Shown here in pieces: positions 437 to 29,101 of a stretch of DNA of 64,000 bases (positions are counted from its first letter, which is position 1; every line of letters starts with the position of its first letter). The notes below the pieces were generated by a model. That model did no database searches. It had not been told where the DNA came from and saw only the letters and a program-made list of their open reading frames with translations. The position numbers and the translations under genes were made by a program. Source of the stretch: a bacterium (GTDB taxonomy: Bacteria; Patescibacteriota; Patescibacteriia; Patescibacteriales; UBA12465); assembly GCA_030696105.1 (NCBI GenBank), contig JAUYNJ010000001.1:134903-198902 (forward strand). Reading direction: 5' to 3'.

Positions 437-446
437 AAGATAATTG

Positions 447-830
447 TGGAGATGATGGGAGTTGAACCCATGTCTAATAAGTGACCCTAGATACGTTTAC
501 ATAAATAGCCTGATTTATTTGTGTCACCAACGTTCTCAAAAATCAGACAAAAGAAACGTCAGTCACCCCTCGTTGTGTCGAAATCATCAGGAGGGGACCA
601 GTGATTTCCAAGCCTCGATAATGACACCGGTTGTTGATGCTGAGGCAGCACCAGTCCGATGGCTATGGCTATTTTTTAATTAAGCCATAACAGGGGCGTA
701 ACTCGGAACATTCCAAGTAAACGCCTTTGCAGTGTTTTTGACACTTGTTTTTTAGGTTATTTTTACGGTTTAACCAAAACCCGCTATGAATATCTAAGGA
801 CAATCTTAATTATCGATACCCGGCATCCCC
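447..830 (-). ncRNA. ssrA: tmRNA (SsrA)
   Basis: 5' GGGGATG, 3' GACATGGGTTCAACTCCCATCATCTCCA tRNA-Ala-like ends with a G-U pair; lies directly downstream of smpB; internal tag frame at 742-680 ends in ...APVMA*. Confidence 0.92.
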
Positions 831-25310: not shown

Positions 25311-25763
25311 TTATTTGGTAACCCGCACTTGAATTGGCTTAAAGCGGATAAACATGTCCGTTGTGCCAGGAATCAGCATTTCAGGCTCACCTGTTGGTGA
25401 AAAAGTTTTAAGTTCCGATTCCGGTCTAACTTTTTTGTCACCTGTTTTATAAATGTCTATCACCATCCGCACTGCCCCGGTTGTCTCGTTTTTTGAAGTT
25501 AAAACTACAACTTTATCGGCGGTGAAGGTTTCACCGGCATAAGTATAGTCAATATAGTAGTTCTTTGTTACTATAATTTTTTTATACCTGTCGCCTCGGC
25601 GGATATGCTTGGGCACGTTAATTGTCTTACCGTCCGCGTCGATGAACGTGTGGGCATCCATAATTGTAAAAAATTCATCCGTTGGTGGTGGACATGTTAC
25701 TTTCACATTAAACATGGTTGTTAATGTTTCGTAGCGTGGTCCGGTGTTTGTTTTCGTTTCCAT
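25311..25763 (-). CDS. Hypothetical protein (150 aa), unit 1 of the accessory array
   Basis: ORF bounded by its own promoter (25905-25877) and a hairpin at about 25261-25289. Confidence 0.75.
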   Translation of the reverse strand: METKTNTGPRYETLTTMFNVKVTCPPPTDEFFTIMDAHTFIDADGKTINVPKHIRRGDRYKKIIVTKNYYIDYTYAGETFTADKVVVLTSKNETTGAVRMVIDIYKTGDKKVRPESELKTFSPTGEPEMLIPGTTDMFIRFKPIQVRVTK

Positions 25764-25795
25764 TTGCTGTTTTTTTTGTTTGGTTTGATGATTAA

Positions 25796-25845
25796 TTGGA
25801 TTGATTGCTAAACCTACGAATTCATAGGCTTGGCAATCAATCCAA
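25796..25845. repeat. Imperfect inverted repeat in the leader (copy 1)
   Basis: TTGGATTGATTGC...GCAATCAATCCAA, a 50-nt hairpin homologous to 26755-26810 and 27394-27448. Confidence 0.8.
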
Positions 25846-25855
25846 GAAACAGCAT

Positions 25856-25905
25856 TTGTAAATGAACCAACCGTTTATAATATCATATAATTGAAATATT
25901 GTCAA
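25856..25905 (-). promoter_or_regulatory. Promoter plus boxA-like motif
   Basis: TTGACA(25905-25900)-17-TGA-TATTAT(25882-25877); GGTTCATTTACAA(25868-25856). Confidence 0.7.
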
Positions 25906-25934
25906 TGTTTGGCTTTTGATACTATTATTACAAT

Positions 25935-26192
25935 AAAAAAGAGGGTTAATTACTTAACCCCCGTAACTCAGAACTCATTGAACTGCTTTCGAGGTTATTT
26001 CACTCTATTCGCTCCTTCGATCAACAGGGACGGTATTTAACATTTAGACTCCGCTAAAGCTGGCGCATTAGCTTCACAGTCTCCCGTCTATTCTACACAT
26101 TGTTAATCTATCTTTAAGCCAACATACGGGAGTCGGACCCGCGGACATCAATTTGATGTTTGTGCCCCTTGCACTATATTGTTTCTGAATTA
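25935..26192 (-). ncRNA. Candidate structured ncRNA with a tRNA-like 5' domain
   Basis: Promoter TTGACA(26227-26222)-17-TAATAT; closing helix AATTCAGAA/TTCTGAGTT; D-like and T-like arms; terminator GGGTTAAG-TAA-TTAACCC-TCTTTTTT; no ORF of 60 aa or more. Confidence 0.55.
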
Positions 26193-26339
26193 ATTAAAAT
26201 ATTATACAGATATTTGTTGTTTGTCAATAAAAAAGACCCAAATTTCTTCAGGCCTTATGGTGTTTCATATCTCTCGCCTATTTGTGAACCGAGACTCATT
26301 TTCAACGTTTCTATGAATTTGCATCACAGGCCTTTTAGG

Positions 26340-26732
26340 TTAGCGGATTGCCGTGAATTTTTCGAGTATATCTTCGAATTTTTCCGGCATTCTTATGCTT
26401 TGTCTGGCAATAGACTCGGATAATCCAGCTTCTATTAAGTCTTGCGCGGACAGTGATGAGTAAACCAACACCTTAAGAGACGAACTTATTTTCTGAAGTA
26501 TCTTAATAAGATGTATTCCAGATTCGTAGCCGCGATTTATTGTCGGCTTAGGGTGGTTTAATAAACTTAGAGGAACAAAGGGGTCAATAATCAAAAAATC
26601 AATTTGCTCGATGTTTTCCAATATTTCCTGTTCGTGTTGAAAAAACAGAACATTAAAACCCTTCCACTTCAGCTGTTCGCCAATACACTGCCTTATAGAC
26701 AGTGAGTCGATTATAATTACCACATTTTTCAT
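26340..26732 (-). CDS. Stand-alone response-regulator receiver-like protein, unit 2
   Basis: MKNVVIIIDS...IDFLIIDP...SGIHLIKIL...KVLVYSS receiver pattern; start at ATG 26732. Confidence 0.7.
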   Translation of the reverse strand: MKNVVIIIDSLSIRQCIGEQLKWKGFNVLFFQHEQEILENIEQIDFLIIDPFVPLSLLNHPKPTINRGYESGIHLIKILQKISSSLKVLVYSSLSAQDLIEAGLSESIARQSIRMPEKFEDILEKFTAIR

Positions 26733-26754: not shown

Positions 26755-26810
26755 AATCGGGTTAATTGTTAAAGTCACTAATCATAGAAACCTTAATAAT
26801 TAACCTGATT
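26755..26810. repeat. Imperfect inverted repeat in the leader (copy 2)
   Basis: AATCGGGTTAATTGTTAA...TTAATAATTAACCTGATT. Confidence 0.8.
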
Positions 26811-26816
26811 ACTGTT

Positions 26817-26874
26817 TGTAAAGGAGCGAGTATATATAACAAAATATTATGTAAAACAAATACTATTTTGTCAA
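26817..26874 (-). promoter_or_regulatory. Promoter plus boxA-like motif
   Basis: TTGACA(26874-26869)-17-CATAAT(26851-26846); GCTCCTTTACA(26827-26817). Confidence 0.65.
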
Positions 26875-27075
26875 TCACTTTGTCCTATTTAACCTGGTAG
26901 GCTTAATTTTGTGTTGGTATATGTAATAAATGCGCGTCTTCGGCTCGTCTTTGTTAAACAGGTTCGTTAAACGTAAGTCTTGGCAAACCTTTTTATTGGA
27001 GTATTTAGTTAAATAAAAAACTACCTCAACCTTAATGGTATATTGGTAGTAATTAATTGCTTCATGCCTTAGAGG

Positions 27076-27369
27076 CTACACTCTCACGTAATTCATAGGT
27101 TGAGAATATCCAACACCACCGCCTTCGGACGCCCATTTTACCCACAACACAGGTTCTCCCTCAGTAAATTCCATAGGTGCGACACCTTGAACCTCACCAA
27201 TGCCCTCCATGTTGGGGTGTGTAACTTTCATCCCATGTTTGGCGGGAATCACTTTTCCATCCTTATTAGGGATTAAAAAATGCTTGCAAGCCGCGTTTGA
27301 GATGTCAACCACAAATGCGTGATCCGTGTGCGCGGTAACCTTAATTTTATTAACACTTTTTTTAGGCAT
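27076..27369 (-). CDS. Hypothetical protein (97 aa), unit 3
   Basis: Start ATG 27369 preceded by AGGAGG; own promoter. Confidence 0.7.
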   Translation of the reverse strand: MPKKSVNKIKVTAHTDHAFVVDISNAACKHFLIPNKDGKVIPAKHGMKVTHPNMEGIGEVQGVAPMEFTEGEPVLWVKWASEGGGVGYSQPMNYVRV

Positions 27370-27393
27370 GTACCCTCCTTTTTTAGTGTAAAC

Positions 27394-27448
27394 AATCAGA
27401 TTAATTATTAAATCTACTATTTCAATAAAATTGACAACTAACCTCATT
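27394..27448. repeat. Imperfect inverted repeat in the leader (copy 3)
   Basis: AATCAGATTAATTATTAA...TTGACAACTAACCTCATT; aligns with copies 1 and 2. Confidence 0.7.
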
Positions 27449-27455
27449 ATTACTC

Positions 27456-27507
27456 TTAAATGAACCGCTTAACCGAAAATAATAATGTATAACTACAGTT
27501 GTGTCAA
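27456..27507 (-). promoter_or_regulatory. Promoter plus boxA-like motif
   Basis: TTGACA(27507-27502)-17-TATTAT(27484-27479); GGTTCATTTAA(27466-27456). Confidence 0.65.
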
Positions 27508-27675
27508 ACTGCCGTCCACCCTACACTTATAAATAATAATCCAGTTGAGGCTGGATTTTCTTATTACAGGAGGGGGCTACTCTTAAAAGTTGGATAGCTT
27601 TTTTGATGAATTATTTGGTGAAATTATAAAGGCCTTTGATATGATCTCTGGCCAAATATATAAATTTTTATCCTT

Positions 27676-27951
27676 TTAAAAAAAGGGTGTTAATAAATCT
27701 TTAGTCAAAACAAGCCCTATGACCAAAGTTACTAAGCTCGCAACCTGAATAATTACTGCACCTATTTGAATTTTGATTAGCATATCAGAAATTCTCCATC
27801 CCTTATCCCTGTCTCTGCCGTGAAGCCACCCAAATGCGTGGTAATTGACAAATAACATGCAAATCATATTAATCAGCATGCCAAATACAATAAGGCCTAA
27901 ATAGAATATAGGCAGAGAAACTAATTCTCTAAAAAATTCTACACTTTCCAT
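27676..27951 (-). CDS. Small membrane protein (91 aa, 2 TM), unit 4
   Basis: Two hydrophobic helices; promoter TTGACA(28024-28019)-17-TGA-TATATT; AGTTCATTAAAA motif. Confidence 0.7.
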   Translation of the reverse strand: MESVEFFRELVSLPIFYLGLIVFGMLINMICMLFVNYHAFGWLHGRDRDKGWRISDMLIKIQIGAVIIQVASLVTLVIGLVLTKDLLTPFF

Positions 27952-28114
27952 GATTCTTGTTTTTTAAGGTTAGTATTTTAATGAACTATGCCTTTAATAT
28001 ATCACGTTTATTATATTTTGTCAATTAGCTTGGCCCTAGGGATTATTTGATAAATTAATACAAAAAAAGACCCTTGATGTTATCGCGGGTCTTGCGTTGT
28101 TTTAACTAACGTCA

Positions 28115-28435
28115 TTAACCAACAATTGATTGTCTTTTACTTGGCATTAGCATGCCAATAAAACACAAGGTATATGTCAAAATATTTAAAACAAGCGTTA
28201 ATTTTGACACTTCGAGAATAATTACCTGAGACAAGGAGAGTCCGATTATTCCGAGTCCCAGAAGGAATCCTTTGTTAGTTATTCTTTTGTTTAAATTATA
28301 TTTAGGGTTTGCAATAACGATTGCTGTTAAGATGCTGGCAAGCATTGGCCCTATATATAATAAAAAGGATAAAACGAAAGAAAGGAGCAAAACTAAAATT
28401 GATACCCCGATCCATTTAATAGATTGTGCTTTCAT
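28115..28435 (-). CDS. Small membrane protein (106 aa), unit 5
   Basis: 3-4 hydrophobic helices; promoter TTGACA(28505-28500)-17-TGA-TATAGT; terminator at about 28062-28093. Confidence 0.7.
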   Translation of the reverse strand: MKAQSIKWIGVSILVLLLSFVLSFLLYIGPMLASILTAIVIANPKYNLNKRITNKGFLLGLGIIGLSLSQVIILEVSKLTLVLNILTYTLCFIGMLMPSKRQSIVG

Positions 28436-28653
28436 CTCCGTGTGTTTTTGGTTTGTTTTTAAATAACTGTGCTTTTACTATATCATATTTATTAAATTCT
28501 GTCAACTAGTTTATACTCCCGTAACGGCTACCCCTTTTTTTAAACAAAATAGCCTTACATGTTTCCTTAATATTGGTGACTTGCGTGGTCGCTCCGCCTC
28601 AGAATACTGACCGCCGCTTGTCCGCTTCCCAGCAGGGATTACGTATTTATAGC

Positions 28654-28685
28654 AAAAAACACCCCTTTTTATTGGGATGTTTTTT
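28654..28685 (-). terminator. Intrinsic terminator after tRNA-His
   Basis: AAAAAACACCCC...GGGATGTTTTTT. Confidence 0.65.
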
Positions 28686-28698
28686 ATTCACTACTAGG

Positions 28699-28770
28699 GG
28701 TGCCTATCGGGAATCGAACCCGAAATAACAGGACCACAACCTGCTGTGTTACCACTACACCATAGGCACC
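28699..28770 (-). tRNA. tRNA-His(GTG)
   Basis: G-1 GTGCCTA...GCAGG-TTGTGGT-CCTGT...GGTTCGATTCC...TAGGCAC-C. Confidence 0.95.
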
Positions 28771-28805
28771 ATGTTAATCTTAATTACTTAAGACTCATTA
28801 TTTAA

Positions 28806-28949
28806 TTATTCAGCGTCTCCGCAATGGTGTTCGCAGCGACTGCAGTCACAACTAAAATCCATTGAAAACATGTTTTCAATTTCTTCTCTTGTCTTCTTTT
28901 CGCTTACTGGCTTTACAGCAGCCTTAGCCTTAACAGTTTTCTTTTCCAT
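28806..28949 (-). CDS. 47-aa small protein with a C-terminal CxCxxCxxxC motif (below the ORF-track cutoff)
   Basis: MEKKTVKAKAAVKPVSEKKTREEIENMFSMDFSCDCSRCEHHCGDAE*; fills the gap between two tRNAs, AT-rich leader. Confidence 0.65.
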   Translation of the reverse strand: MEKKTVKAKAAVKPVSEKKTREEIENMFSMDFSCDCSRCEHHCGDAE

Positions 28950-28979
28950 ATATAATTGAATTAATGAATTAATTAAACG

Positions 28980-29051
28980 TACGCCCAGTAGGAATCGAAC
29001 CTACGTAACCAGCTTAGAAGGCTGGTGTTCTATCCATTGAACTATGGGCGC
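28980..29051 (-). tRNA. tRNA-Arg(TCT)
   Basis: GCGCCCA...CCAGC-CTTCTAA-GCTGG...GGTTCGATTCC...TGGGCGT-A. Confidence 0.95.
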
Positions 29052-29101
29052 TCCCTTTATCAATTTGATAATACTAGATAAAAAACTGACTGTCAATTAA
29101 A

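Follow-up and report, generated by a model that had tools for sequence, protein, structure and literature searches.

Outside the ribosome, the sites at which rRNA binds protein are known to be imitated within mRNA leaders, by mimics that are small and partial. For uL1, both the autoregulatory site in the rplKA leader of the L11 operon and the archaeal L1 mRNA site are extraribosomal mimics of the site in 23S rRNA. The stalk helices of the RNA under study are numbered H76, H77 and H78 after those of the L1 stalk, the arm that binds uL1 and holds the E-site tRNA. PMC4810234 describes the L1 stalk as gripping the elbow of the E-site tRNA through two interdigitated T-loops, a motif shared with RNase P and T-box RNAs; the distal region of T-box Stem I and the S-domain of RNase P belong to the same class of elbow-docking motif as the stalk. 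PMC9297842 reports loss of H78 ('23Gap3') for some Parcubacteria 1 (including Falkowbacteria), Microgenomates, WWE3 and Berkelbacteria. The locus described here lies in a window of 64,000 nt, the whole stretch of DNA that was analysed, from the 844 kb genome (G000) of an ultra-small bacterium of CPR type. It is a stand-alone small RNA gene with promoter-like and terminator-like signals, and its product joins a tRNA-like domain to a second domain that is a complete copy of the 23S rRNA L1 stalk (H76-H78). No description of a free-standing L1 stalk, or of an L1 stalk fused to a tRNA-like element, was found in the literature searched, which covered few subscription journals, and the RNA family is apparently undescribed.

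The unit was free of ORFs and occupied approximately 26192-25936 on the minus strand (~255 nt), with the body of the RNA at ~26192 to 25965 and a predicted transcription start at ~26192. Its parts were delimited as follows:

26227-26199, minus strand: sigma-70-type promoter, with TTGACA at 26227-26222, a 17-nt spacer and TAATAT at 26204-26199; 10 of 12 matches in a consensus scan
26191-26183 with 25973-25965, minus strand: closing helix P1, 9 bp, AAUUCAGAA with UUCUGAGUU; 9 of 9 pairs change on both sides among 16 members, 91% of cells paired
26181-26120, minus strand: tRNA-like domain, comprising acceptor-like stem, D-like hairpin, hairpin with 3-nt loop and T arm
26181-26176 with 26125-26120, minus strand: acceptor-like stem CAAUAU/AUGUUG; 5 of 6 pairs change on both sides
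26174-26162, minus strand: D-like hairpin GUGC-AAGGG-GCAC
26159-26145, minus strand: hairpin with a 3-nt loop replacing the anticodon arm, ACAUCA-AAU-UGAUGU
26142-26126, minus strand: T-like arm GCGGG-UCCGACU-CCCGU; 4 of 5 pairs of the T stem change on both sides
26119-26109, minus strand: single-stranded linker GCUUAAAGAUA, 11 nt, from the 3' strand of the acceptor to H76
26108-26019, minus strand: complete copy of the 23S rRNA L1 stalk, by its match to Rfam LSU_rRNA_bacteria
26108-26101 with 26026-26019, minus strand: H76, 8 bp; 7 of 8 pairs change on both sides
26088-26084 with 26033-26029, minus strand: H77, 5 bp; 5 of 5 pairs change on both sides
26081-26047, minus strand: H78, which carries a K-turn-like GA/GA motif and, at 26070-26055, an apical hairpin; 5 of 6 pairs of the hairpin compensated
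26018-25974, minus strand: 3' junction region, with a 'CGAA' junction, a hairpin of variable length and a conserved motif GCAGUUCAAUGAG just before the 3' strand of P1
25962-25935, minus strand: intrinsic terminator, a 9-bp GC-rich stem at 25962-25941 followed by a U-run (T-run in the DNA)

An earlier reading of the sequence alone had proposed an ORF-less, self-contained transcription unit with its own promoter and terminator, and this was upheld: both signals flanked the RNA and both were conserved in homologues, while no ORF of at least 60 aa was found on the minus strand, that of the RNA itself, between 25764 and 26339. The two promoter hexamers were identical in the homologue from G021, TTGAC[AT] occurred upstream in 8 of the 11 members examined, and a hairpin with a T-run lay directly 3' of P1 in 10 of these 11. 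A TATAAT at 26206-26201 overlapped the TAATAT of the promoter on the same strand. The RNA gene of G092 had no promoter of its own and lay immediately after the 3' end of a tRNA-like sequence. On the opposite strand, a mechanical 87-aa ORF with a TTG start (26160-26423) overlapped the 5' end of the RNA, and a 49-aa ORF was present at 25891-26040.

The second domain had been read as an anonymous nested hairpin, a description that gave way to a more specific one. When the interval 26005-26120 was scanned alone, positions 26019-26108 matched positions 2126-2215 of the Rfam model LSU_rRNA_bacteria (RF02541; 41.5 bits, E = 7.3e-12), helix for helix, so that the domain is identified by homology as an L1-stalk copy. 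The Rfam LSU model was used because a blastn comparison of the stalk with E. coli genomes produced no match. The alignment took in the loop sequences and the K-turn-like GA/GA motif (Kt-77/78) at the base of H78. The family model R2, a second covariance model built from seven members of the family, in turn cross-matched the part of genuine 23S genes of relatives that encodes the L1 stalk; these partial matches covered model positions 84-173, and one of them, in G000 itself (C9:118982-119044), fell inside a 23S rRNA gene (L031) according to Rfam. The RNA therefore resembles the L1 stalk of 23S rRNA in its sequence, secondary structure, loops and K-turn-like GA/GA motif, and every helix covaries; it differs in that its H76 is closed after 8 bp, in having its own promoter and terminator, and in the tRNA-like arm fused to it. 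That the locus is part of a 23S gene was ruled out, given its own promoter and terminator and the intact, real 23S gene at approximately 117.5-120.5 kb of C9 in the same genome (L031). No rRNA flanks were found by BLAST or with the family model at the 11 member loci that came from outside the collection scan.

Among the pairings originally proposed for the second domain, GAUUAACA/UGUUGAUC, GACGG/CCGUC and GACU/AGUC were all present; AAGCU/AGCUU was displaced by a better pairing one register away, UAAUGC-GCCA-GCUUUA, which is the version kept in homologues. The proposed cloverleaf mimic was recovered in full on the minus strand, with D-like, 3-nt-loop and T-like hairpins and an acceptor-like stem, and the proposed pairing of the 5' and 3' ends corresponds to P1, all nine pairs of which are compensated among homologues. 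The minimum free energy was -74.8 kcal/mol, compared with -59.1 +/- 4.6 for 200 shuffled sequences (z = -3.44), one of which was equally good.

Comparison of the members separated a universal core from dispensable additions. The core consisted of P1, an acceptor-like stem of 6 bp that stacks on a T stem of 5 bp bearing a T loop of tRNA type, the 11-nt linker, the second domain, a variable hairpin and the 3' junction motif, which is conserved. Both the D-like and the 'anticodon' hairpin varied across members, were absent from two and are dispensable, while the T loop and the loop sequences of the stalk were the best-conserved parts. The T arm was of tRNA type: a 5-bp stem with compensated pairs and a 7-nt loop of the UUCRAnn type, beside the acceptor-like stem; in most members the T loop reads GGUUCGAWUCC. 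Within the stalk, 'UGA' and 'GAG(U/C)C' were kept in all 11 rows read, as was the GA/GA motif at the base of H78 (11 of 11); the RNA of G000 departs from consensus at one conserved stalk position (UUAAAUACC, against UGAAAUACC in most members). The length of the linker and its 'AUAG' motif were kept in most of the 16 aligned members, with exceptions that include L058 and L097. In the 3' region (25974-26018), a T-loop-like pentamer, 'UUCAA' or 'UGCAA', was kept in most members, while the hairpin was absent in G044 and reached ~40 nt elsewhere. The acceptor-like/T-arm and the L1 stalk emerge from one junction, and their lengths were nearly constant across deep divergence (6 bp of acceptor and 5 bp of T stem in the one, 8 bp of H76 and 5 bp of H77 in the other).

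The sequence-only reading had named a match to a known family as grounds for its own refutation, and this applies only in part: the stalk module alone matches LSU rRNA, and the RNA as a whole belongs to no Rfam family. A scan of the 64-kb window at Rfam gathering thresholds returned only eight tRNAs and a tmRNA (444-830), with nothing at the RNA, and a scan of 25700-26450 at E <= 10 found nothing inside it. ARAGORN called no tRNA at the RNA when applied to the window, where its tRNA and tmRNA calls agreed with Rfam, and the best Rfam tRNA-clan score for the tRNA-like part was 11.2 bits (tRNA-Sec), against a cut-off of 47 bits. These results agree with the earlier view that the domain is tRNA-like but not a tRNA; a tRNA was rejected also for the 3-nt loop in place of a 7-nt anticodon loop, and for a stem that is variable or absent in homologues. 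The tmRNA of the genome is elsewhere in the window (444-830), as had been stated, and tmRNA was excluded as an identity for the RNA, which has neither a CCA end nor a tag ORF. The core of the tRNA-like domain of tmRNA is likewise an acceptor stem plus T arm, with a dispensable anticodon arm; unlike tmRNA, the RNA has no free CCA end, tag reading frame or pseudoknots.

The suggestion of a tRNA mimic thus survived in part: there is a tRNA-like domain in a structured RNA, and the specific comparisons with YrlA and 6S RNA failed. Like YrlA and other bacterial Y RNAs, the RNA is a stand-alone ncRNA in which the ends pair as a closing stem and the tRNA-like module has a canonical T loop. However, its second module is an rRNA copy rather than a Ro site, its acceptor opens into a junction and its 'anticodon' stem is capped, so that the topology is different; there was no Rfam match at E <= 10, and a search of the whole genome for TROVE (PF05731) found no match, and hence no TROVE/Ro gene, while control genomes were matched. 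The 6S model (RF00013) matched nothing in the genome, and the fold is a multi-branched, four-way junction rather than a rod. RNase P RNA was found on another contig, in keeping with its reported absence here. The absence of SRP signatures was also confirmed, the small and large SRP RNA models (RF00169, RF01854) being unmatched in the genome; SRP RNA was rejected on this evidence, and neither the M domain nor the GTPase of SRP54 scored above cut-off.

The uL1 sites in mRNA leaders are, like the RNA, extraribosomal copies of the uL1 site. They are small, partial mimics placed beside rplA in an mRNA leader, whereas the RNA copies all three helices in full and has a gene to itself, on a contig other than that of rplA. 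An identity as the uL1 autoregulatory leader was dismissed, since rplA lies on contig C1, R2 had no match in the rplA locus, and a terminator follows the RNA. The T-box Stem I, the RNase P S-domain and the RNA are alike in having two arms of matched length that act as a ruler. T-box and RNase P RNAs bind tRNA in trans, as part of a riboswitch or ribozyme, while the presumed partner of this RNA is built in, without a regulated gene or catalytic core.

The search for homologues had been proposed together with a test for covariation, and both domains proved to be conserved. Among 40 relatives, BLAST recovered one full-length homologue (G021, 76% identity) and two short matches of 32-41 nt to the promoter and 5' end (G036, G009). 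The hairpin that replaces the anticodon arm was fully compensated between G000 and G021 (ACAUCA/UGAUGU to GUGUAU/AUAUGC). A covariance model, R1, identified seven full-length members in 148 genomes of the family, G000 included. R2, applied with lax filters to the other 15 species of the genus, produced no further member (1 of 16 for the genus); elsewhere it found two members in other families of the order (G195, G029) and two in a sample of 150 genomes from the phylum (G355, G283). In that phylum sample, 27 of 29 fetched loci were within 23S genes, and 13 further matches listed had no locus. When one genome per species was scanned for the pattern, eight matches were obtained, all of them full-length under R2; three were probable duplicates of known members and five were new, and the records concerned were labelled Candidatus Falkowbacteria, Moranbacteria, Gracilibacteria and Saccharibacteria, together with two oddly labelled bins. 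The family therefore comprises 16 distinct, full-length, stand-alone members from several CPR lineages, through which it is patchily scattered, and the RNA of G000 scored 244.5 bits over the full family model. Its presence in 7 of 148 family genomes, and in 1 of 16 within the genus, indicates that the RNA is dispensable.

Across the 16 members, 93.8% of pair cells were standard and both partners had changed in 45 of 53 pairs, a level reached in 0 of 500 shuffles and compared with 12-22 pairs in slid controls, figures to be read with an alignment fitted to the model and relatives that are not independent. R2 also matched true tRNAs weakly through its tRNA-like part, and three candidates, from G174 (L043), G009 (L029) and contig C8 of G000 (L032), were dropped as true tRNAs. 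A candidate from G224 (L039) was a match inside a 23S gene and was dropped, as was a spurious 21-bit hairpin match in G019.

Immediate neighbour genes differed between member loci, yet six of the seven family loci (all except G092) shared parts of one neighbourhood, defined by a phosphomutase, YibE/F, a SpoU-type methylase and PBP1A. In this genus, the site of the RNA is a hypervariable island that follows tRNA-Arg and tRNA-His. Pfam comparison of nine neighbouring proteins revealed nothing related to RNA save the SpoU/RlmB-type methylase, 2.9 kb away; of the 15 other genomes of the genus, all lacking the RNA, 13 have the gene for this methylase too. The downstream 150-aa gene, which is found also in relatives without the RNA, is served by a promoter of its own. 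In view of this promoter, of the terminator behind the RNA and of the unconserved neighbours, a cis-regulatory leader was rejected.

The 23S rRNA of the same genome shows how the stalk copy differs from its ribosomal counterpart. In the 23S gene of G000, H78 is cut to a tetraloop hairpin (GCC-UUCG-GGC), so that the stalk of the RNA is more complete than that of the cell's own 23S rRNA. H78 was trimmed in all seven carriers that could be evaluated (G000, G021, G080, G195, G096, G092 and G283); the 23S stalk region was sought in G355 and G029 and not found there, and G152, G044 and the five new members are outside this count. Eight genomes of the genus that lack the RNA gave the same shortened stalk match (63 nt in seven, 48 nt in one). 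Therefore, the trimmed H78 is a background feature of the lineage and not a correlate of the RNA. Selection nevertheless maintains a full H78 in the free RNA, where compensation is seen in 5 of 6 apical pairs, while the ribosome has dispensed with it, and this contrast is new here. The uL1 gene was present in G000 (C1:79283-79858), in 142 of 148 family genomes (119 of 120 of high quality) and in all seven carriers of the family; within the family, then, carriage of the RNA does not go with loss of uL1.

A pattern scan of viral contigs identified six loci. Two of these, L082 (1493-1579, on a contig of 117 kb) and L083 (59 kb), were lone copies of the L1 stalk with AT-rich flanks and no 23S context. 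These phage copies had no tRNA-like arm, no P1 architecture and no tRNA gene within 1.5 kb; the phage stalks are thus like the RNA in being free-standing copies of H76-H78 outside rRNA genes, and unlike it in lacking the tRNA-like arm and P1. Of the others, L085 was a true 23S gene, L080 was a 228-nt LSU-like fragment, and the remaining two touched contig ends.

The best reading of these observations, with perhaps an even chance of being correct, is that the molecule is a free uL1-binding RNA with its T-loop elbow docked in cis on the head of its own stalk, acting off the ribosome. The stalk module would bind uL1, creating a free RNA-protein particle; this is predicted because the Rfam-conserved stalk nucleotides are kept. 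The T-loop elbow would stack on the stalk head in cis and so copy the contact between E-site tRNA and the L1 stalk, which is predicted because the two arms leave one junction and hardly vary in length. Such a particle would work outside the ribosome; its most likely task would be to hold or buffer uL1, or else to present a partner with a preformed 'stalk plus tRNA' surface. The patchy distribution sits poorly with a housekeeping uL1 buffer, since it marks the RNA as dispensable. A free uL1 site of high affinity would also compete with the ribosome, which counts against the reading, as does the departure of the G000 RNA from consensus at one conserved stalk position.

A gene transcribed on its own in which selection retains an entire functional rRNA domain, joined to a mimic of that domain's natural ligand, the tRNA elbow, would be a new re-use of ribosome parts. 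The RNA offers a compact natural model of the contact between L1 stalk and tRNA, and, taken with the lone phage stalks, it points to the L1 stalk as a portable module that has a life off the ribosome. It also has a bearing on what allowed many CPR ribosomes to lose H78, uL1 or bL9 (PMC9297842). A more speculative and rather unlikely version would have the only complete L1 stalk of these cells sitting off the ribosome as an 'E site in a bottle': a uL1-stalk RNP clamped on a built-in tRNA elbow, which, by opening and closing, would take up tRNA or let uL1 go and thereby adjust translation where the ribosomal stalk has been trimmed, and which phages would have borrowed as a module.

Docking in trans rather than in cis is a doubtful alternative, although several observations point towards it. 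The stalk would capture the elbow of free tRNA (e.g., deacylated tRNA) or of pre-tRNA, with the tRNA-like arm as a displaceable pseudo-substrate, and the RNA would serve as a sensor or sponge. The elbow-docking loops of the stalk are conserved, known RNAs bind tRNA in trans by the same motif (PMC4810234), and the lone phage stalks (L082, L083) lack the tRNA-like arm, from which the stalk module alone seems to be useful. However, a tethered partner in cis would out-compete free tRNA unless the interaction were regulated, and the locus has neither an expression platform nor a conserved downstream gene.

It is improbable that the RNA is a precursor, cut by RNase P or RNase Z into a mini tRNA-like RNA and a separate L1-stalk RNA, one of which would be the working molecule. 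An acceptor/T-arm minihelix is the minimal substrate of RNase P and RNase Z, and the promoterless gene of G092, directly behind a tRNA-like 3' end, would suit such processing. Against this, P1 joins the 5' leader to the 3' end 1 nt from the acceptor, and the compensation of all nine of its pairs among the 16 members argues that the whole molecule is kept together; nor is there a CCA or RCCA after the acceptor, and only one nucleotide separates the acceptor from the D-like stem.

Another proposal, very improbable on present evidence, makes the RNA a decoy for an attacker or user of the E-site surface of stalk and tRNA (a phage factor, a toxin or an E-site translation factor), and thus an accessory, defence-like or regulatory RNA. 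Its patchy distribution, its position in a hypervariable island by tRNA-His and tRNA-Arg, and the existence of phage-borne stalk copies are all consistent with this role. However, Pfam identified no defence or mobile genes adjacent to the RNA, no partner was found, and the chromosomal neighbourhood shared in several genera points to vertical descent. Finally, a non-functional origin as a decayed rRNA/tRNA fragment or an assembly chimera, for which the local nature of the LSU match and the metagenomic derivation of the genome (as the run record suggests) could be cited, is scarcely credible and refuted in practice by 16 members from different assemblies with compensatory changes in every helix, by the conserved promoter and terminator, by constant arm lengths and by an intact real 23S gene elsewhere.

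A minor observation concerned G005, where a weak match of 17.3 bits (L089:1850-1944) occurred just after the homologue of the upstream gene. Rfam returned nothing at this locus, the strands of P1 were kept while the core was missing, and the DNA alignment was 58% identical; the locus may be a deletion scar, if not a convincing one.

A segment of the genus relative G005 (L089:1850-1944) gave a match of 17.3 bits to the RNA, in which both strands of the closing helix P1 and the conserved 3' junction motif were kept, and in which 32 nt stood in place of the 167-nt core. This match was found at the syntenic position, behind a homologue of the 138-aa gene, and may be what a deletion left of the RNA. 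An island of variable content was identified immediately behind tRNA-Arg(TCT) and tRNA-His(GTG):

Window 26800-29100 (also fetched loci L086-L089): hypervariable island with small unannotated ORFs

Five species of the genus each showed a different island content, with syntenic flanks.

Among the carriers of the RNA, the member in G092 (locus L014) came straight after a T arm and the 3' end of an acceptor stem, both of tRNA type and located in the 60-nt upstream region, and no promoter-like site was found upstream of it. Because such a site was absent and a tRNA-type 3' end directly preceded the RNA, this member may be co-transcribed with a tRNA. Solitary copies of the L1 stalk (H76-H78) were also present in two phage contigs, of 117 kb (L082:1493-1579) and 59 kb (L083); these had AT-rich flanks and occurred without 23S context and without a tRNA-like arm.

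In the 23S rRNA gene of G000 itself, which lies outside the window, helix 78 of the L1 stalk was cut to GCC-UUCG-GGC (G000:C9:118982-119044, equivalent to L031:1501-1563). The same reduction was seen in every relative whose 23S was read, and it agrees with the '23Gap3' loss reported in PMC9297842. The BLAST alignments of relatives' 23S genes to that of G000 jumped about 740 nt of G000 sequence (G000:C9, ~119213-119951, also outside the window), which suggests that the 23S gene holds an insertion or intron.

G000 and 40 relatives appear to lack the signal recognition particle. The whole G000 genome contained no match to RF00169 or RF01854 for the SRP RNA, no detectable SRP54 M domain, no SRP-type GTPase above the cut-off, and no ORF of at least 150 aa with the motif DT[AS]GR. 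An SRP54 M domain was present in only 1 of the 41 genomes of the order sample; this genome has 3% contamination, and the contig that carries the domain is 1.9 kb long. A literature search produced no clear statement on SRP absence.

Two further elements were observed in the window. The first lies between the promoter of the 150-aa gene (25905-25877) and its start codon (25763):

Window 25794-25847: near-perfect 54-nt hairpin, leader of the 150-aa gene

This hairpin was the source of a run of chance matches to miRNA models. The second was the tmRNA (window 444-830), for which ARAGORN predicted the tag peptide VKNTAKAFTWNVPSYAPVMA, with an ending that differs from the usual ...ALAA type.
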